From an uncultured Candidatus Saccharibacteria bacterium (GTDB lineage Bacteria; Patescibacteriota; Saccharimonadia; Saccharimonadales; UBA10212): DNA of 56,856 nucleotides. Below are positions 1 through 26,742 of this stretch, piece after piece; the first letter of the stretch is position 1, and each line of letters starts with the position of its first letter. The stretch spans positions 1-56,856 of the forward strand of contig CAZVAN010000002.1 of the NCBI GenBank assembly GCA_964625245.1, in the 5' to 3' direction. The notes beneath the pieces were generated by a model. The model made no database searches. It was given only the letters and a program-made list of their open reading frames with translations, and was not told the origin of the DNA. The translations under genes and the position numbers were made by a program.

Positions 1-95
1 GCTTTTTGAAGGACAACTACGTTTTCCCTCAACGCCGCTTCTGGAGTAAATCCAGATTCCGCATTCTGCGGAACCGCGGCTACTACCTTTCCTTC
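1..95 (-). repeat. Structured repeat element, copy 1 (candidate ncRNA, truncated by window edge)
   Basis: About 75% identical to the reverse complement of 7556-7647. Hairpins 40-45/51-56 and 57-63/67-73 are enclosed by gccgc 34-38/gcggc 76-80. Stem 6-13/25-32 has a G-U pair only on the minus strand. Confidence 0.5.
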
Positions 96-150
96 TCGTT
101 TTAATATTCGGGGACGGGGTTAACCGTTACTATTTATAATATCACAAACT

Positions 151-173
151 GGCACTCTCATGTCAAGAGTGCC
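151..173 (-). terminator. Hairpin downstream of the nusA-orf99 operon (possible terminator)
   Basis: 8-bp stem ggcactct/agagtgcc with a 7-nt loop, 28 nt after the orf99 stop. The U tract on the minus strand is only partial (AGUUUGUGAU). Confidence 0.35.
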
Positions 174-200
174 AATTTATTTAGGTGGAGATTGTTTAGG

Positions 201-4380: not shown

Positions 4381-5985
4381 CTAGCCAACTACTCTATAAA
4401 CTTCCTCTAGCGTGGTTAGCCCAGCTATGGCTTTTAGGATGCCATCCTGAAGCATAGTACGCATTCCCTCGCTGACGGCTTTCTCCTGGAGCATTTCGGC
4501 CGTGATCTGATTGGGCGGCAACTTTAGCAACTGTTGTACGCCCGGCGTCATAACCAACTGTTCACGCAAGGCCAACTGTCCGCCATAACCAAAGGGGTTG
4601 GCTTCTGACTTACCGGCTTTATACAGTGTAATTTGGTTAATGTCGGGCCTTGGAACATTGGGCGGCATGCTGGCAAGCACCATTTGCAGTTGTTGCTTCA
4701 ATGCCTCATCGGGCTGGTAGGCCTGCTTGGTGGAATCGTCCAGCCGGCGGACCAGGCGCTGGGCCATTACAAGGTGCATAGCACTGGCAAACAGTGGGTT
4801 CACTCCTACCATATCTAGCAAGCGTGTCAGGGCCGCGGCGGCGTTGGCGGCGTGAAAGGTACTTAGCACCAAATGGCCGGTCAGGGCGCCTTGCAGAGCT
4901 GTACGGGCCGTGTCTTGGTCGCGTATTTCACCTACCATCACTACATCCGGGTCAAGACGTAGCACGGCGCGCAGTTTTTCAGCAAAATTCTGATTGTCCA
5001 GCTGGCCCTCAACCGGTATTTGGACAATGCCGGCCATATTATATTCCACTGGATCCTCTAAGGTTATAATTTTGCGCTCCGGAGTGTTGAGGGTATTGAT
5101 TATCGAATAAAGAGTGGTGGTTTTACCAGAACCGGTTGGCCCAACCACCAGTACCATGCCGGTTGGGTGAGCTATAACATCGTTGACTACATGTGCTTCG
5201 TCAGCGCTTAAGCCGAGATTTTCAAGTTTGAAGAGCTCTAATTTTAGGTTAAATAGTCGCATCACGGCATCCATACCGTAAACCGTCGGTACTGTTTCAA
5301 CGCGCAGATTTAGAGTCACGTCTTCACCGGTAGCCAGCTTATACTGACGGCTGATATGGCCGGTTTGGGGTTCTTTGACGTTCAGCGATACATTAGCGGC
5401 GCTGGCCAGCGCCGCACTCAGATGACGGTATTTTTCCGGGGCAAGATAAGCTACCGGGTGTAGCACGCCGTCCACCCTAAACCTGATGCGGACATTCTCG
5501 CGTTGATTTTCTAGATGAATGTCGCTAGCTTTCAGTTGGTAAGCCTGCTGTACCAGGTAGGCCAGCATGTCGTCCGGGCGCACTCTATCAAGCGTGGCAC
5601 TAACCTGATCAACGAGGGTCTGGGCCGCCGCACCACTGGAAGTTATTGAAATATCCTGATACTCAACTTTTTTGGGTGGGTCGTAGAGCTTCATGTAGTC
5701 CATGTAGCCGCTCTCACTTATGATCGAAAAGTTCAGGCGCTGGTCGGTGAAACGTTTTTCTAGGGTATTAATTGTCTGCTGCGAAGTGTTTGTGGTGATA
5801 CCGAAGTGAATATAGTGAGCATCGGCTACAATCGGCACGGTTTTAAGTCTATAAAGCTCTTCGGTCGTCAGAATGTTTGGATATAGCTGCTTTTGGACAA
5901 TGTTAGTATCAATATATGGCAACCCCAGCACAGCCGCCCGGCGCTGCGTTGTTTGTTCCTCATTTTGGCGGACATCTATTGCCAT
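4381..5985 (-). CDS. pilB: Type IV pilus assembly ATPase PilB (GspE family)
   Basis: Walker A GPTGSGKTTT, plus the GspE N-terminal domain and Asp/His boxes. I trimmed the start to the MAIDVRQ ATG at 5985. The longer ORF to 6066 overlaps the divergent trmH-like gene. Confidence 0.88.
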   Translation of the reverse strand: MAIDVRQNEEQTTQRRAAVLGLPYIDTNIVQKQLYPNILTTEELYRLKTVPIVADAHYIHFGITTNTSQQTINTLEKRFTDQRLNFSIISESGYMDYMKLYDPPKKVEYQDISITSSGAAAQTLVDQVSATLDRVRPDDMLAYLVQQAYQLKASDIHLENQRENVRIRFRVDGVLHPVAYLAPEKYRHLSAALASAANVSLNVKEPQTGHISRQYKLATGEDVTLNLRVETVPTVYGMDAVMRLFNLKLELFKLENLGLSADEAHVVNDVIAHPTGMVLVVGPTGSGKTTTLYSIINTLNTPERKIITLEDPVEYNMAGIVQIPVEGQLDNQNFAEKLRAVLRLDPDVVMVGEIRDQDTARTALQGALTGHLVLSTFHAANAAAALTRLLDMVGVNPLFASAMHLVMAQRLVRRLDDSTKQAYQPDEALKQQLQMVLASMPPNVPRPDINQITLYKAGKSEANPFGYGGQLALREQLVMTPGVQQLLKLPPNQITAEMLQEKAVSEGMRTMLQDGILKAIAGLTTLEEVYRVVG

Positions 5986-6600: not shown

Positions 6601-7551
6601 ATGACCGCAAAAATAAAAAGTTCGCGCCAAAGCTCAACCAGCCACAAACATAAACCAAGTGGCACTAGCACTAAATCCTTTGAAAAGGTCTACTGGCCCT
6701 ATATCCCGCTTGTTTTGATAATGGGTCTGGTTGTGTTTCTGGCTTCCCAAAACGGCGTACTGGCTAGTGTTATAAAAAATCCGGCCGGAAACGTACTGGC
6801 TTACGCCACCAGTATCAGTCCTAGTGATTTACTGGCGGACACCAACTCGGCCAGAGCCGCTAGTAACATCAAGCCGCTTAAGACTAATCTGGAGCTGGCT
6901 AGAGCCGCCCAAGCTAAAGCCAATGATATGGCTAGCCGTAACTACTGGAGCCACAATACACCAGAAGGAAATCCGCCATGGGTCTTTGTGGAGGCCCAGG
7001 GCTATAATTACCAAAAAATCGGCGAGAACCTGGCGGCCGGCTTCAGCGACTCCCAGGCTACCATCAACGGTTGGATGGCCAGCCCAGAGCACAAAGCCAA
7101 TATGTTAGACCCGCTATTTAACGAGGTTGGCTTTGGTTTTGCCAATAACCCCAACTACACTTCGACCGGCAATAACGGCCCAATGACTATAGTTGTGGCC
7201 TATTACGGCGAACCGACTCCCGGAGCAGCTACGGTTGCCGCCGTAGCGCCATCTCAAATAAATGGCGCCTCTCAAGTTACCCCGTCTACCATTGGCCTAA
7301 GCCCACAATCAACCAGTCGAGCCCAGCTAGCCTTAGCCGGCTCACCGGTAGCTCGCTATAGCACTTGGCTGGCAGTTGTCGGTCTGACAGCTGTCATCTC
7401 AATCTGGCTGAGCCGCCACGTCCGAGCACTTCGACGGGTTGCTATAGAGGGCGAAAGTTTTGTGATTTCACACCCACTGTTTGACGTAGGTCTGCTGCTG
7501 CTTGGTTTTGCTTTTTATACATTGACTCGAACCGTCGGCCTGATTCTTTAG
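6601..7551 (+). CDS. Membrane-anchored CAP (SCP/PR-1, YkwD-like) domain protein
   Basis: N-terminal TM helix and a CAP core (NYWSHNTPEG...GENLAAGF...GWMASPEHKANML). The C-terminus is hydrophobic. Confidence 0.8.
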   Translation: MTAKIKSSRQSSTSHKHKPSGTSTKSFEKVYWPYIPLVLIMGLVVFLASQNGVLASVIKNPAGNVLAYATSISPSDLLADTNSARAASNIKPLKTNLELARAAQAKANDMASRNYWSHNTPEGNPPWVFVEAQGYNYQKIGENLAAGFSDSQATINGWMASPEHKANMLDPLFNEVGFGFANNPNYTSTGNNGPMTIVVAYYGEPTPGAATVAAVAPSQINGASQVTPSTIGLSPQSTSRAQLALAGSPVARYSTWLAVVGLTAVISIWLSRHVRALRRVAIEGESFVISHPLFDVGLLLLGFAFYTLTRTVGLIL

Positions 7552-7555
7552 TTTA

Positions 7556-7647
7556 GGGAAAGGGAGTAGCCGCGGTCAGCCTTTGGCTGATTCGGATTCA
7601 TTCCGAAAGCGGCGTTGAAGGAAAACCGTAGGTTGTCCTTCAAAAGC
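7556..7647 (+). repeat. Structured repeat element, copy 2 (candidate ncRNA)
   Basis: P1 7569-7573/7609-7613 encloses hairpins 7576-7581/7585-7590 and 7591-7596/7602-7607. A further hairpin follows at 7615-7622/7636-7643. It fills the gap between two convergent stop codons. Confidence 0.55.
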
Positions 7648-7648
7648 C

Positions 7649-10600
7649 TTAGCGCACTATCACATTTGTGGAGCCGAAGATTTTGGCTAGTTCTCGCACG
7701 CTCTCCTCATTGATAGCAATCGTTTGCGGCAGTTTTATAGCCTGCTTGCTGGAACTCGCTCCTGTGACCAAAACAACTTCATTGTCGCCGGCAAAACCGT
7801 CCAACTTTTCTTTAAGACTTAGGAGCATGGGCTGATTAGAGCTATCTTCCATTCTGATAAAGACTTTCGGCGGTAAATCTTTTTTAGGCATAGGCGGGGT
7901 TTTGGCCCGCCCACCTATATAGGCCGTCTGCTTAGTAATTGAGTACAGCTGTCCCTTTGGCTGGTAGTTTTTGGCCTCAGCAAGCTCAATCAAACGGGCT
8001 TCCTCAAGCATCAGCTTTGGTCCATCATCGCGCGATACATCAATCCGGCCACTGGCCAAGATAATTTTGTCTTTCTGCCATACCGGCCTGGTGCTGTCGA
8101 AAATTTTGGGAAAAACTACTACCTCCATTTCACCGGCGGCGTCGGCTATTTTAACAAAAGCCATCTTACTACCATTTTTGGTTGTTATCTCGCGAATATC
8201 GTTAATAAAGCCGCCAATACTGACGTTCTTCTCGGCTAAAGATTCGTTTATCTGGCTGATTGGCAGGGCAATTTCAGATAGTAGTACTTCATAGTCCTCT
8301 AACGGGTGGTGACTTAAATAAAGCCCCAGTAGTTCCCTTTCCCATGCCAGCTGAGTATGAGTCTCCACGTCCTGAGCCGGTACTGACAGAACCAATTTTG
8401 ACGGCGCCATATCAACCGATTCACCGAAAAGATCAACCTGCCCACTGCTGGCTGATTTTTGGTATTGGTTGGCTAGGTTAAGAATGTTATCAATATTGGC
8501 AAGCAGTACTACACGCTCCGAAAAATCGTCCATAGCCCCGGATTTTATGAGACTTTCCAGAGCCTTGCGGTTAACTATCCGGCAGTTCACATTTTTACAA
8601 AAGTCTTCAATGGATTTAAATTTGCCGCCAAGCGTTTGCCGAGCCCGGAGAATTTCTTCAACCGCACCGTGGCCAACGTTTTTTATGGCGTCCATGCCGA
8701 AGCGGATCTGAAATTTTTCCGGAACGACAGCGAACTCGTGAAATGATTCATTAACACTTGGCGCTAGAACTTCTATGCCCATGTGTTTACATTCGGCGAT
8801 TTCAATGCTCAAACGGTCAATATTGTCATAGTCGCTAGTCATAACAGCCGCCATGTAGGCGTCTGGGTAATTGGCTTTAAGATAGGCCGTTTGGTAGGCA
8901 ATAAGGCCATAGCAAGCCGAGTGCACTTTATTAAAACAATAAGCCGCGAATTCTTCCAGCTGCAGCCAGAGTTTTTCAATCAACCGGCGGTCGGCTCCGA
9001 CAGTTTTGATGGCGCCTTCGATAAATTCGTTTTTCATTTTGGCCATAACTTCTGGAATTTTTTTGCCGATGGCTTTTCGCAATGTATCAGCCTGTCCACC
9101 AGTGAAGCCGCATAAATCCTTGCTAATTTGCATAACCTGTTCCTGGTAGACAATAATGCCGTAGGTGTTTTCAAGCGAGGCTTTCATGGCCGGGTGCAGA
9201 TACTCAATTTTTTTAGTGCCATGTTTTCTAGCAATGAAGTCATCTATCCACTGCATTGGACCGGGACGATAAAGTGCCACCATGGCGATAATGTCTTCAA
9301 AAACCGTAGGTTTGAGTTGCTTGAGGTAACGCTTCATGCCAGCCGACTCAAGCTGGAAGACGCCGGTCGTATCACCCCGCTGAAGTAGCTCAAAAGTTCG
9401 CTTGTCGTCCAAAGGGATATCTTCAATCCGAATATCCTTGCCGTGAACCTTTTTTATAATTCGCAGCGTATTTTTAATGGTTGTTAGGTTTGAGAGTCCC
9501 AAAAAGTCCATCTTAAGCAGCCCCAGCTCCTCCACCGGGACCATAGAATATTGAGTGGCGACCACACCCTTCTGAGACATTTCCAGAGGTGTAAACTTGG
9601 TTAGCTTGTCGGGCGCTATAACTACACCAGCGGCGTGAACGCCGTGACTGCGAATCGTCCCTTCTAGCTTTGTAGCCAGGTCAAAAACCTTGGCCGACTG
9701 GGCATTGTTATTATTCTCAGCCAGTAGTTCCGGAATGGCTTTGAGTGACTTGGCCAGGGGTGTATGCCGGCCCTGAACCGGCGGCGGAATCATTTTTGCC
9801 AGCCGATCAGCATCGGCATAAGGCACCTGTAAAACTCTAGCTACATCGCGTACTGAGTTTCTAGCCGCCATCCGGCCAAAAGTTACGATATTGGCCACTT
9901 TGTCGTGACCATACTTGTCTAGACAGTATTCAATAACCTCATCGCGCCGGGTGTCTTGGATATCGATATCCATATCCGGCATGCTGATACGGTCGGGATT
10001 CAGAAAACGTTCGAAAAGTAGATCGTATTTAAGCGGGTCGATTTCGGTGATTCTAAGAGCGTAGGCCAAGATAGAACTGGCAGCGCTACCGCGTCCTGGT
10101 CCAAAAACAATTCCGTTATCTTTACCCCAGTTTATAAAATCTTGGACTATCAAAAAATAGCCGTTAAAGCCCATAGTATTAACCACGTCGAGTTCATACT
10201 CAGCTCTGGCTACGACTTCTTTGCTGAGTTTCTTCTTGGCGCTCGCAATAGTCAATTTACTAAGGTTATTTCTGGGCACTTCGGCATACCGCCAGGCCAG
10301 CCCTTGCCAAACTATGGTTTCCAGGAAATTTTTTTCGGTTTCGTTTTGGGGCGTCGGAAATTTAGGAATTAAGATTTTACCAAGCTCAATCTGGACATCG
10401 CAGCGGTCGGCGATTGCTCTCGTGTTTAATATTAGTTCCGGATTAGTGCTGCCCCAACGTTTGATAATCTCTTTAGGCTCAGCCACGTGTAGTTCAAATT
10501 GCTTTAAACTAAAACGGTTTTCGTCAGACAAAAAAGCACCCGTCTGAACGCAGAGCAATATTTCATGGGCTTCCTGGTCTTCGTGGTTTAGGTAGTGAGC

Positions 10601-11269
10601 ATCACAGGTGACAACAGCCTGAATATCCAGTTCGTGCGCTAGCTTTAACAATTTGTCGTTAACTCGGGTCTGGTCCTTCCAGGCTGTGGGGTGGTTGGGG
10701 TGGCCGTGGTCTTGGAGCTCAATATAATACCGATCACCAAGAAGCTGCTTGTACCACTGGGCGGTTTTTTTGGCCAAATCATATTGGCCCTGGCGCAGGG
10801 CATCACTGACTTCGCCGCCGATGCACCCAGATAGAATTATTAGACCTTGGTTGTACTTTTCCAGCAGCGCTTTATCAATTCTGGGACGGTAATAAAAGCC
10901 GTCAAGATTAGCAATGGAAGCCAGATTCATCAAGTTTTCATAGCCAATATTATCCATAGCCAGAATCGTTAGGTGGTAGTACTGCCGGTCGTGGGCCGGA
11001 TCTTTGTCGGTATGGCTCCGTGCTGCCACGTAGGCCTCCATGCCAATGACCGGCTTGATGCCTTTATCGCGAGCTGCTTCATAGAACTCGATAGCGCCGC
11101 TCATAGTGCCATGGTCAGTCACGGCAACGGCCTGCATCCCCAACTGCTTTACTTTTTTTACAAGCGCCGGCACTTTGGTTAAGCCATCGAGCAGACTGTA
11201 TTGGGTATGGTTGTGCAGATGCACATAATCACTAGCTTTTAGTTTTGCCCTCTCACTCATTAACTCCAT
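7649..11269 (-). CDS. dnaE: DNA polymerase III alpha subunit
   Basis: 1206 aa with a PHP domain (HLHNHTQYSLLDG), polymerase core and OB fold. Confidence 0.95.
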   Translation of the reverse strand: MELMSERAKLKASDYVHLHNHTQYSLLDGLTKVPALVKKVKQLGMQAVAVTDHGTMSGAIEFYEAARDKGIKPVIGMEAYVAARSHTDKDPAHDRQYYHLTILAMDNIGYENLMNLASIANLDGFYYRPRIDKALLEKYNQGLIILSGCIGGEVSDALRQGQYDLAKKTAQWYKQLLGDRYYIELQDHGHPNHPTAWKDQTRVNDKLLKLAHELDIQAVVTCDAHYLNHEDQEAHEILLCVQTGAFLSDENRFSLKQFELHVAEPKEIIKRWGSTNPELILNTRAIADRCDVQIELGKILIPKFPTPQNETEKNFLETIVWQGLAWRYAEVPRNNLSKLTIASAKKKLSKEVVARAEYELDVVNTMGFNGYFLIVQDFINWGKDNGIVFGPGRGSAASSILAYALRITEIDPLKYDLLFERFLNPDRISMPDMDIDIQDTRRDEVIEYCLDKYGHDKVANIVTFGRMAARNSVRDVARVLQVPYADADRLAKMIPPPVQGRHTPLAKSLKAIPELLAENNNNAQSAKVFDLATKLEGTIRSHGVHAAGVVIAPDKLTKFTPLEMSQKGVVATQYSMVPVEELGLLKMDFLGLSNLTTIKNTLRIIKKVHGKDIRIEDIPLDDKRTFELLQRGDTTGVFQLESAGMKRYLKQLKPTVFEDIIAMVALYRPGPMQWIDDFIARKHGTKKIEYLHPAMKASLENTYGIIVYQEQVMQISKDLCGFTGGQADTLRKAIGKKIPEVMAKMKNEFIEGAIKTVGADRRLIEKLWLQLEEFAAYCFNKVHSACYGLIAYQTAYLKANYPDAYMAAVMTSDYDNIDRLSIEIAECKHMGIEVLAPSVNESFHEFAVVPEKFQIRFGMDAIKNVGHGAVEEILRARQTLGGKFKSIEDFCKNVNCRIVNRKALESLIKSGAMDDFSERVVLLANIDNILNLANQYQKSASSGQVDLFGESVDMAPSKLVLSVPAQDVETHTQLAWERELLGLYLSHHPLEDYEVLLSEIALPISQINESLAEKNVSIGGFINDIREITTKNGSKMAFVKIADAAGEMEVVVFPKIFDSTRPVWQKDKIILASGRIDVSRDDGPKLMLEEARLIELAEAKNYQPKGQLYSITKQTAYIGGRAKTPPMPKKDLPPKVFIRMEDSSNQPMLLSLKEKLDGFAGDNEVVLVTGASSSKQAIKLPQTIAINEESVRELAKIFGSTNVIVR

Positions 11270-12929: not shown

Positions 12930-14387
12930 CTAAACTGCTCCTAGCTGTTTCTTAATTAACTCAACGGCCACTCCGGGGTTAGCTTTACCGGCACTGGCGG
13001 CCATGACCTGCCCGACCAAAAAGCCTATGGCCTTTTGCTCGCCTTTTTTAACATCCTCAGCAGCCTTGGGATTATCGGCAATTACCTTAACTACGATTTT
13101 CTCAATTTCAGCCTCATCAGAAATCTGGATTAAGTTTTTCTCATTGGCAATAACTTCTGGATCCTGAGCAGTATTTAGCATTTCCCAAAATACGTCCATG
13201 GCGGCTGTGGAGCTGAGTTTATTTTCGCCAACCATTTTGGATAATTTTATGAAGTGGTCGGTGCTATGTTCAAGCTGACTAGATACGTCTTGGGTGCCGT
13301 CGTTAAGCGTATCGGTAGCGTGCACAAACCAGAGGGCTACGCGCCGGGCGTCCTCGGGCTCGGCCTTCTCCGCAATCTGCAAAACTTGCTTGACGATAAC
13401 CGGGGAGTCAAGGATATCCTCAGCCACCTTGTCGTTAAGCTTAAGCTTGGCAAGCTGCACGCGGATGGCCGGCGGTAGCATTGGTAATTCTTTTTTTATT
13501 CCGGCCAAATAACTATCTTCAAGCTGCAGCGGCGGAACGTCAGGTTCTGGCATGTAGCGGTAGTCTTCGGCCTCTTCTTTACTGCGCTGGCTGGTTGTCT
13601 TTTGTTTGGCTTCGTCCCAACCGCGAGTTTCCTGGACCACTTGCTCACCTTTTTCGCTCAGTTCAATTTGGCGGTTTATCTCATGCTCCACAGCGGCTTC
13701 AACGCTACGAAAACTATTCAGGTTCTTAGTCTCGGTTCGTTTGCCAAGCTCGCTGGATTTACTGACGCTGACATTAACATCAAAGCGCATATTGCCGTGG
13801 TACAAGTCAACATCGCTAACATCGGCGTATTTCATTAGAAGGTAAAGCTCCCTGGCAAATGCTTTGGCCTCGGCCGGACTGCTCATATCCGGCTCGCTAA
13901 CAATCTCCAGCAGTGGCGTGCCGGCCCGGTTTAGGTCTACCAGTGAGTAGTCGACGCCTGCCGGATGGATATTTTTACCTGCATCTTCCTCAAGATGAGC
14001 CCGGGTGATACCGATAGTTTTCTTTTGCCCGTCAACCGTAATTTCAACCTGGCCTCCCTTGATAATCGGGTTTGCGTACTGGGTAATCTGGTAACCCTTA
14101 GGTAAATCCGGGTAAAAATAGTGCTTCCGGTCAAAGTGGCTGAATTTCTCCGCGATGGTTCCAAGTGCATAAGCGGCACGAACTGCTAAGTGTATGGCGC
14201 CTTCATTGAGCACTGGCAAGGCCCCCGGCATACCCACGCAGATGTGGCTGATTAGCGTATTGGGCTCCGCCTCCCGGGCGTCATTACCTACTGCCGCGAA
14301 TAGCTTAGTCTTAGTTTTAAGCTGAACATGCGTTTCAATACCGATTGTCGCCTTATATTTGCTGCGTTTATCTTCTGAGACTGCCAT
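12930..14387 (-). CDS. gatB: Asp/Glu-tRNA amidotransferase subunit B
   Basis: 485 aa with IGIETHVQL and YFYPDLPKGYQITQ. Confidence 0.95.
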   Translation of the reverse strand: MAVSEDKRSKYKATIGIETHVQLKTKTKLFAAVGNDAREAEPNTLISHICVGMPGALPVLNEGAIHLAVRAAYALGTIAEKFSHFDRKHYFYPDLPKGYQITQYANPIIKGGQVEITVDGQKKTIGITRAHLEEDAGKNIHPAGVDYSLVDLNRAGTPLLEIVSEPDMSSPAEAKAFARELYLLMKYADVSDVDLYHGNMRFDVNVSVSKSSELGKRTETKNLNSFRSVEAAVEHEINRQIELSEKGEQVVQETRGWDEAKQKTTSQRSKEEAEDYRYMPEPDVPPLQLEDSYLAGIKKELPMLPPAIRVQLAKLKLNDKVAEDILDSPVIVKQVLQIAEKAEPEDARRVALWFVHATDTLNDGTQDVSSQLEHSTDHFIKLSKMVGENKLSSTAAMDVFWEMLNTAQDPEVIANEKNLIQISDEAEIEKIVVKVIADNPKAAEDVKKGEQKAIGFLVGQVMAASAGKANPGVAVELIKKQLGAV

Positions 14388-26573: not shown

Positions 26574-26583
26574 ACTGCTTAAG

Positions 26584-26597
26584 ATTATAGCTCAAAA
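26584..26597 (-). promoter_or_regulatory. Candidate promoter of tktN: TTTTGAG-C-TATAAT
   Basis: On the minus strand it reads TTTTGAGCTATAAT, ending 10 nt before the tktN ATG. That implies a very short leader. Confidence 0.4.
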
Positions 26598-26612
26598 GAA
26601 TGTTTTTTGGGT

Positions 26613-26734
26613 CCCCGCGGCTTGAGGATAAGCCGTGGGGTTAAGCGTAAGGACATGCGCAAGCTGGAAGTAGTTTACGTTTAGAAAACTACGGAAGCTG
26701 AAGTTATGGCCTAAGCTGGTTGTCCTTCAAAAGC
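26613..26734 (+). repeat. Structured repeat element, copy 3 (divergent)
   Basis: 11-bp hairpin 26613-26640 with a G-U pair on the plus strand only, and an inner hairpin 26670-26676/26686-26692. It ends in the shared box gttgtccttcaaaagc (26719-26734), 8 nt before the rpe stop. Confidence 0.45.
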
Positions 26735-26742
26735 GTCAGCGG

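Follow-up and report, generated by a model that had tools for sequence, protein, structure and literature searches.

We identified a previously uncatalogued family of structured elements of ~90-100 nt that is interspersed in the genomes of Saccharimonadales (Saccharibacteria, CPR). On balance, and with some reserve, we interpret it as a structure-constrained interspersed element, non-autonomous and copied at the DNA level, that behaves like REP, BOX and RPE repeats and has an architecture distinct from theirs. The element is not a dedicated ncRNA gene at a single locus, because it is multi-copy, occurs in both orientations, is polymorphic in presence and orientation, is inserted both sense and antisense into 23S rRNA, and includes a decayed copy. 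A role at the RNA level is possible. The first-pass annotation had posed a structured RNA and a REP/MITE-like repeat as alternatives; the fold and its covariation hold, and the either/or does not, as both sets of properties coexist in this family.

Two intact copies of the element lie in opposite orientations in the window, the 56,856-nt stretch of Saccharibacteria DNA that was analysed as a whole (Table 1). Each copy consists of a 14-nt purine-rich tail (AAGGGAAAGGnAGUA), a 5-bp helix P1 enclosing hairpins P2 and P3, one linker G, and the 13-bp hairpin P4. Copy 2 occupies the whole 97-nt gap between the stop codon of a CAP-domain gene (7549-7551) and that of dnaE (7649-7651), in a neighborhood that encodes, according to Pfam, NusA, RNase HII, a type IV pilus ATPase, a SpoU methylase, the CAP-domain protein and DnaE. 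The DnaE homologues with a source name (69-85% identity) nearly all bear a Saccharibacteria or Saccharimonadales label. Copy 1 precedes a clpB-like gene that begins just left of the window, and the AUG follows its P4 by 6 nt, as the identical locus L111 and also L133 show.

The observation of two related, structured copies in the first-pass annotation is confirmed. An end-to-end alignment at the same positions was returned by MAFFT, and P2 and P3 differ in sequence between the copies while keeping their pairing as had been described (tcagcc/ggctga versus ttccgca/tgcggaa, and ttcgga/tccgaa versus tctgga/tccaga). The G.U pair in the 3' hairpin (P4) of copy 1 is indeed present on the minus strand only, the plus strand having an A-C mismatch. 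The conserved blocks GGAAAGGnAGTAGCCGCGG and AAGCGGCGTTGARGGAAAAC occur exactly twice each in the 56.9-kb window, compared with expectations of 0.06 and 0.00. A covariance model built from the homologues described below assigns 109 and 94 bits to the two copies, and the next full-length match scores 11.7 bits. The two-copy count was incomplete: both copies are real, and a third, decayed copy at ~26650-26733 on the plus strand had been missed. This copy retains the P4 3' strand and tail GGTTGTCCTTCAAAAG as an exact 16-mer at 26718-26733, plus scattered upstream similarity, and can no longer form P4. It was found by an exact-block search (three matches versus 0.01 expected) and is missed by the covariance model at E<=10.

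Table 1. Coordinates of the element copies and associated features in the window
Feature	Position	Strand	Basis or remark
Copy 1, whole element, in 5' UTR of clpB-like gene	4..94	-	cmsearch 94.3 bits
Copy 1, hairpin P4 with strand-specific G.U pair	6..32	-	
Sigma-70-type promoter TTGACA-17-GATATT, TG-extended, would transcribe copy 1	138..166	-	Conserved in L133-L135
CIRCE-like inverted repeat TTGGCACTC-N9-GAGTGCCAG, overlaps copy 1 promoter	149..175	-	Conserved in L133, L134, L135
Copy 2, whole element	7555..7645	+	cmsearch 109.3 bits, sequence, Pfam for neighbors
Copy 2, single-stranded purine-rich 5' tail AGGGAAAGGGAGUA	7555..7568	+	Nearly invariant across 77 copies
Copy 2, P1 5' strand GCCGC, partner 7609-7613	7569..7573	+	All 5 pairs covary in family
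Copy 2, hairpin P2 UCAGCC-UUU-GGCUGA	7576..7590	+	Folding and family covariation
Copy 2, hairpin P3 UUCGGA-UUCAU-UCCGAA, semi-conserved loop AUUYAYU	7591..7607	+	Folding and alignment
Copy 2, P1 3' strand GCGGC	7609..7613	+	Family covariation
Copy 2, hairpin P4 UUGAAGGAAAACC-GUA-GGUUGUCCUUCAA, 13 bp, one A.G mismatch, sequence-conserved	7615..7643	+	Folding and alignment
Decayed third copy, rpe-tkt gap, antisense to both genes	26650..26733 (start approximate)	+	Aligned with intact L031 and L066 copies at same site

Homologues exist in large numbers (>100 copies). A pattern search of one genome per species recovered seven true homologues, mostly in Saccharibacteria MAGs, its other 29 matches being chance matches in unrelated, mostly GC-rich, genomes. 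A second scan with a looser pattern, in which P1 was left free, yielded 95 metagenome stretches. The two scans combined give 104 instances with 88 distinct sequences, nearly all of them in Saccharibacteria/Saccharimonadales DNA. Contigs of two MAGs labelled Babeliales (L007) and Binatia (L031), and the protein P0082, carry Saccharimonadales-type sequence, with a DnaE 70% identical to that of the window; these contigs and their DnaE are probably mis-binned or mislabelled. Across the family the purine-rich 5' tail UAAGGGAAAGGUAGUA is almost invariant, the invariance of GGAAA, AGTA, GG and GTTGA-G-AAAAC being partly imposed by the search pattern. Helix P1 is free in sequence and always paired, and closes either a three-way junction with P2 and P3 or, in minimal forms, a single hairpin.

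Covariation, on which the first-pass annotation had based its case for selection on structure, proves very strong in each of the three variable helices of the family. RNAalifold predicted 28 pairs from 77 distinct full copies. In these, pairing holds in 97.0% of stem cells, compared with 84.2% after shuffling, and double-sided changes number 285 versus 82; in neither case did any of 500 shuffles reach the observed value. When partners were slid by 1-3 columns, only 33-56% remained paired. Covariation was found in 5/5 pairs of P1, 5/6 of P2 and 5/6 of P3 (15/17 in P1-P3), P4 being conserved in sequence, and mutual information picks out the same pairs as the fold. Both window copies adopt the same fold shape, with z-scores of -3.7 and -4.1. 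Their complementary strands fold comparably (z-scores of -4.7 and -4.8), and the strand of the element is therefore not chosen by folding energy. This equality is what might be expected if the similarity were due to chance, or if the element were just a palindrome of the DNA whose structure is not under selection. That reading is refuted by the conserved blocks occurring exactly twice each in the window, by the >100 homologues with compensation in 15 of the 17 P1-P3 pairs, and by the non-palindromic character of the conserved 5' tail.

The fold, which had not been recognised in the first-pass annotation, matches no family in Rfam 15. At the gathering threshold there was no Rfam match at the window copies, and at E<=10 the only match within 7500-7700 was a 13-bit miRNA that lies 3' of the element and overlaps just its last bases; 12 related loci matched only rRNA and tRNA. 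The comparison included hammerhead, twister, pistol, hatchet, HDV-like, SRP, 6S and Y RNA. As had been stated earlier, the element is not a tRNA: ARAGORN detected no tRNA or tmRNA gene in the window, and Rfam gave no tRNA match at the copies. A suppressor tRNA, considered because the P3 loops AUUCAUU and AUUUACU look like stop-reading anticodon loops, was rejected on the varying length and sequence of the loop and the pyrimidine at position 37. A hammerhead was also rejected (its 'CUGA' falls within a covarying stem and is missing from copy 1), as were fragments of SRP, 5S, 6S and RNase P RNA (no Rfam match), a small ORF (no start codon, variable length), and an attC-like site, for which the GTTRRRY/RYYYAAC resemblance in P4 is weak and cassette arrays are missing. 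Mimicry of the 16S helix 18/530-loop rests on AGCCGCGGU, CGUAGGU and UUGUCC, which are common to both; the order of these motifs differs, and the idea found no other support. Literature searches for a Saccharibacteria RNA motif or repeat retrieved only lysM-TM7, a different motif, and a survey of rRNA insertions.

Copies vary in ways that separate a conserved core from a flexible periphery. The P4 purine strand is repeated in the tail, and the two co-vary between subtypes A and B: by mutual information, the tail variant GGGAAAAAGAGUAG is linked to the P4 variant GAGGAAAAACC...GGUUUGUCCUC in 8/8 sequences. The P3 loop varies among copies in both length and sequence. In minimal variant L067 (2007-2068), one hairpin takes the place of the three-way junction. 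Divergent copies recovered with the covariance model have the basal P4 pair flipped from U-A to A-U and AGUAG changed to AGCAG. A copy of a divergent single-hairpin subfamily lies between ytxH and dnaE in L137 (7203-7282, minus strand), and the model is too narrow for all subfamilies, because this copy scores just 20.9 bits. The edge of conservation at the 5' end is sharp, at -2/-1, where A and G each reach 92%; the upstream U-A-A-G could be either an insertion target or a part of the element. The P4 loop of two copies (L037, L129) contains a nested 25-nt palindrome. This belongs to a second palindromic repeat, CCCCGCAAAA-N5-8-TTTTGCGGGG, observed at L037 398-422, L129 757-780, L089 500-523 and L105 1138-1165, which is thus nested in P4 in two cases and beside the element in the other two; it was not found in the window.

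Many copies fill short intergenic gaps and border directly on a stop codon, at one end or at both, and no copy was seen inside a coding sequence. Relative to the flanking genes, 23 copies are opposite/opposite, 14 opposite/same, 11 same/opposite and 11 same/same. In protein operons the element is more often antisense (roughly 16 vs 8, in our reading of the gene contexts). Approximately one quarter of the copies lie directly upstream of a tRNA gene on the same strand, and 20 of these 21 sense copies end 2-8 nt before the tRNA +1; the tRNA species are Met, Pro, Asn, Gly, Tyr, Arg and Trp. Antisense copies near tRNAs are 18-140 nt distant, mostly beyond the tRNA promoter. One copy is 23 nt upstream of a 5S rRNA. 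Hexamers of the -10 type are concentrated at -35 to -21 of the element (26 matches in three bins vs ~2-3 per bin elsewhere), and many of these upstream promoters have a GC-rich discriminator as well as TTGACA at a spacing of 17 nt. The order most often seen is thus a promoter, ~15 nt, the element, 2-8 nt, and the tRNA. A promoter within P4 itself (TTGAAG-17-CTTCAA) was dismissed, as its -10 is poor and the real promoters are upstream of the element.

These tRNA leaders give substance to a rival explanation, which we regard as a genuine but minor possibility. The family would be a functional multi-copy structured RNA that strong stable-RNA promoters produce as a 5' leader on tRNAs (and ahead of 5S rRNA). 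Cleavage by RNase P at the tRNA 5' end would set it free to act via its invariant tail and P4, and the other copies would be duplicates or by-products. Its role could possibly be that of a protein-binding or sequestering RNA, or of a cis-acting folding or stability module. The very strong covariation combined with invariant unpaired nucleotides is as expected for such an RNA, and the promoter enrichment, the regular spacing to the tRNA and the linked changes in the tail and P4 purine strand (8/8 sequences) point in the same direction, as do a mild sense-strand excess of G.U and single-step differences that are G.U on the element strand. Against this reading, copies in protein operons are more often antisense, many copies are without a promoter (none was found around copy 2 of the window), and the same tRNA species exists with the element sense, antisense or absent, depending on the contig. 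The antisense insertions in 23S rRNA, the decayed window copy and, as described below, the empty dnaE/CAP gaps and the lack of detected copies in syntenic DNA of relatives also speak against it.

The element also occurs inside rRNA genes. Locus L037, which is entirely 23S rRNA, carries at least four copies, two antisense (one at the tip of helix 79) and two sense (one in helix 45). The helix-45 copy sits between complementary flanks (AGUAAUGA/UCAUUACU), a setting reminiscent of the 23S rRNA IVSs, which occur at helix 25 or 45, are closed by a long stem and are removed by RNase III; the other copies are in helix 79, in the 5' domain or outside rRNA. Unlike IVSs and other short rRNA insertions, most copies of the element lie outside rRNA, and some of those within it are antisense. 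Of 66 reported Saccharibacteria rRNA insertions, 64 are short (<=250 bp) and lack an intron or endonuclease; the survey describes no common fold and no extra-ribosomal copies (PMC11270868).

In two other loci, L061 and L093, a group I intron of ~390 nt interrupts the 23S gene at about E. coli position 2593, and the element forms its final ~95 nt. The intron P1 (ACGU/GCGU with a U.G pair), AAGAUAUAGUCC and the terminal G are all accounted for by the ~300 nt upstream of the element, which is a 3' passenger of the intron and is not itself a group I intron, its free-standing copies having no intron core. These 23S genes (L061 8684-10008, L093 83-1402) contain two insertions, one of ~835 nt at E. 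coli 2500/2501 in addition to the ~390-nt intron. Overall, copies in stable-RNA transcripts are mostly sense and those in protein operons mostly antisense, and this context-dependent orientation bias hints at RNA-level effects; taken together with the regular placement of sense copies, it points to them.

Two further explanations start from the same association with stable RNAs. The element could be a new small self-cleaving ribozyme or a dedicated RNase site that defines transcript ends near stable RNAs and spreads like small ribozyme motifs. We consider this very unlikely. A conserved core with a variable or dispensable periphery, in which the junction is replaceable by one hairpin, would suit such a processing module, as would the sharp 5' edge at -2/-1, the association with tRNA, 5S rRNA and an intron, and an orientation bias that varies by context. 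Yet no ribozyme family in Rfam matches even at E<=10, antisense copies are common, and cleavage in the clpB 5' UTR, where the element ends 6 nt ahead of the AUG, would cut the message off from its promoter-proximal end. The second explanation, a processive antitermination or leader signal (nut/boxA-like) of stable-RNA operons with the P4 3' strand and tail GGUUGUCCUUCAAAA serving as boxA, strikes us as highly improbable. It would account for copies that lie between strong promoters and tRNAs or 5S rRNA, and GGUUGUCCUUCAAAA may resemble the Gram-positive boxA (GUUCUUUGAAAA). However, boxA of rRNA-operon leaders is single-stranded and bound by NusB-NusE, and the boxA-like stretch of the element is predicted to pair within P4. 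Many copies are antisense, occupy the ends of convergent genes or lie within rRNA loops, and syntenic relatives do without the element; no copy was seen at a 16S leader, a region outside the loci compared. The element thus does not appear to be a boxA/nut site.

Comparison of orthologous sites revealed that the element is polymorphic in presence and in orientation. Synteny around dnaE is conserved among relatives. The dnaE/CAP gap, filled in the window, is filled in the same orientation in L108 (DnaE 76% identical to that of the window) and L095 (70%). In the closest relative, L133 (85%), it is filled by an inverted copy with different P2 and P3. The gap is empty in the P0006 contig (79%; 4 nt, by gene coordinates), L134 (73%; 16 nt), L137 (73%; 13 nt), L135 (71%; 0 nt), L138 (70%; 8 nt) and L139 (70%; 5 nt). 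Six syntenic relatives, searched with the model over ~136 kb, gave no match at E<=1 except the L137 copy of 20.9 bits; the absence of a copy by the model means that none is detectable, and the gaps of 0-16 nt are independent of the model. Both the empty gaps and the undetected copies count against a functional RNA. In L136 (69%) the gap measures 612 nt (13628-14239) and is filled by other long inverted repeats, and it seems that insertions of various kinds tend to collect at the convergent dnaE/CAP site.

The rpe/tkt gap tells a similar story. It holds an antisense element in L031, L047 and L066, a sense element in L069 and the decayed copy in the window, where the gap spans 26574-26742 and a tkt promoter (GCTATAAT) adjoins the decayed copy. 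Elsewhere, near-identical variable cores (0.92-0.98 identity) are found between unrelated flanks. No filled/empty pair with identical flanks was found among the loci compared.

In the clpB leader, L133 has a copy that matches copy 1 in location and orientation. The two share a rare AAGGAAAGG start, their P2 and P3 differ with compensation, and they are probably orthologous. L134 and L135 have no element in the clpB leader and possess an ordinary Shine-Dalgarno sequence. Carriers of the element have no Shine-Dalgarno sequence in the 6-14 nt between element and AUG (window 1-6, L111 124-140, L133 20643-20657), and element-free relatives have AAGAGGAAAC or TAGAGGG ahead of the AUG; the element thus appears to have been inserted in place of the ribosome-binding region. 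An RNA thermometer at clpB was rejected: P4 does sequester the Shine-Dalgarno-like GAGGGA in a helix, but ~30 nt separate this motif from the AUG, and the relatives lacking the element have a normal Shine-Dalgarno sequence. The inverted repeat that overlaps the promoter of copy 1 resembles the CIRCE consensus and suggests HrcA-type heat-shock control of the clpB-like gene in these Saccharimonadales.

The hallmarks of several classes of mobile DNA were sought in the family. Terminal inverted repeats are lacking: the 5' end matches the reverse-complemented 3' end at best at 6-7 of 16 positions in 72/87 copies. No target-site duplication was detected, the mean longest direct repeat of the flanks being 3.18 compared with 3.20 for shuffled partners. 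The element therefore has neither of the two features (TIR and TSD) of a classical MITE derived from a DDE transposase. Nor is it a short palindrome of 20-40 nt like REPs and REPINs; it is 90-97 nt long, with a three-way junction and a non-palindromic tail. No gene for RAYT, Y1/HUH or another transposase was seen in the 57-kb window, which encodes only housekeeping genes. A split or autonomous gene-carrying version was rejected, as no orphan 5' or 3' halves around an insert were found in the loci examined, and carriage by viruses or plasmids was dismissed on zero matches to the element in IMG/VR. Within one GC-skew domain the two window copies are oppositely oriented, and there is therefore no strict replication-strand rule. 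Only two head-to-head doublets were seen, each of which forms a long composite palindrome: one in L095 (4719-4811 on the minus strand with 4818-4907 on the plus strand) and one in the 5' domain of L037 (an antisense and a sense copy, about 2510-2700).

The closest parallels are with small structured repeats of other bacteria. Like pneumococcal BOX, RUP and SPRITE, enterobacterial ERIC/IRU and the Correia elements of Neisseria, the element is ~100 nt in length, with tens of copies per genome at intergenic, co-transcribed sites in both orientations, stable predicted RNA folds, modular variants, and unknown or borrowed mobilisation. BOX, RUP, SPRITE, ERIC/IRU and Correia repeats either form long imperfect palindromes or, in the case of Correia and RUP, have TIRs and duplicate a TA. 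In contrast, our element is without TIR or TSD, combines a non-palindromic conserved 5' tail with a sequence-free three-way junction, is inserted in rRNA genes and is regularly placed in tRNA leaders; Rfam searches gave no sequence relationship to any curated family.

With REPs and REPINs (mobilised by RAYT transposases) and the IS200/IS605-derived PATEs, which are single-strand elements recognised by their hairpins, the element shares the lack of TIR and TSD, a structure partly conserved over sequence, a mild strand asymmetry, the occasional head-to-head doublets (L095, L037) and an end in ...TCAA. It differs in that REPs are 20-40-nt palindromes with hundreds of copies and PATEs have similar sub-terminal hairpins at both ends, along with a fixed target of 4-5 nt 5' of the left end, whereas the conserved hairpin of the element is at the 3' end only; it also differs from these systems in the opposite orientation of the window copies within one GC-skew domain and in that no Y1/HUH gene accompanies them in the window. 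The Rickettsia palindromic elements (RPE) are likewise old, small structured repeats of reduced, host-dependent genomes that are retained at orthologous sites and tolerated inside functional genes. RPEs insert in frame in protein-coding genes; the element instead invades rRNA genes and an intron. Small covarying motifs that adjoin rRNA or tRNA genes, such as Bacillaceae-1, are also similar, but the element has no Rfam match, occurs at protein-gene ends and antisense as well, and is polymorphic. Among small structured interspersed repeats, the family stands out by its unusual three-way-junction architecture and its affinity for stable-RNA transcripts in CPR bacteria.

One strand of the element seems to matter. 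Counts on the strand of the element give 43 G.U pairs against 23 A.C mismatches, and near-identical copies differ by single steps that are G.U on that strand. The ratio is about equal in sense, antisense and convergent contexts; strand selection that depends on context was rejected on this ground (G.U:A.C ~2:1 in sense and antisense gene contexts alike). The bias is mild and would fit RNA or single-stranded DNA alike. The pattern of an invariant tail and P4 with drifting, always paired P1-P3, both within one genome and when the window and L133 are compared at the clpB leader, looks as if purifying selection had acted over a long time on copies already in place. This mosaic resembles paralogous RNA genes and is unlike neutral decay after a burst. 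The interpretation of the first-pass annotation, a candidate structured RNA, is partly supported.

An alternative view, which we judge unlikely, takes the fold to be selected in RNA. The family would then be a mobile RNA module whose invariant tail docks on P4 or alternates with it (as a triplex or switch), which is abundant as RNase P-trimmed tRNA leaders, and which binds a dedicated protein or processes itself. It would be a bacterial counterpart of SINE-like or ribozyme-like elements that colonises stable-RNA transcripts in CPR bacteria.

We return to the non-autonomous interspersed element as our preferred reading. We infer that new copies arise from DNA and enter further sites of the genome in either orientation, with no TIR or TSD, and that copies would persist in the few non-coding slots of compact genomes, namely tRNA leaders, rRNA loops and spacers, the periphery of an intron, 5' UTRs and the gaps between stop codons. 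The invariant tail and P4 may be the parts recognised by the acting factor, with P1 keeping both side by side, and the constraint would act on a single strand. The P1-P3 module would be a spacer that needs only to fold, which would explain its drift in sequence under strict compensation. A sense transcript is predicted to form a self-contained domain, and about one quarter of the copies would be so transcribed, as tRNA 5' leaders; some of these may have been taken over as such.

The genomes of Saccharibacteria and other CPR bacteria are tiny and tightly packed, and hardly anything has been learned about what their non-coding DNA contains. The family described here is large, structured and well supported but has no entry in Rfam; left undescribed, its copies would be taken for intergenic noise or for rRNA insertions of unexplained origin. 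Some of the short rRNA insertions without introns that have been reported from Saccharibacteria may be copies of the element. It also provides a marker of gain, loss and inversion in lineages thought to be poor in mobile elements. If the tRNA-leader copies are functional, they would represent a rare conserved structured 5' leader on bacterial tRNA precursors.

A minor observation concerns the gene next to copy 2. For dnaE (7649-11269, minus strand), the longest ORF is 1206 aa and the called gene 1203 aa, and translation probably begins three codons into the longest ORF.
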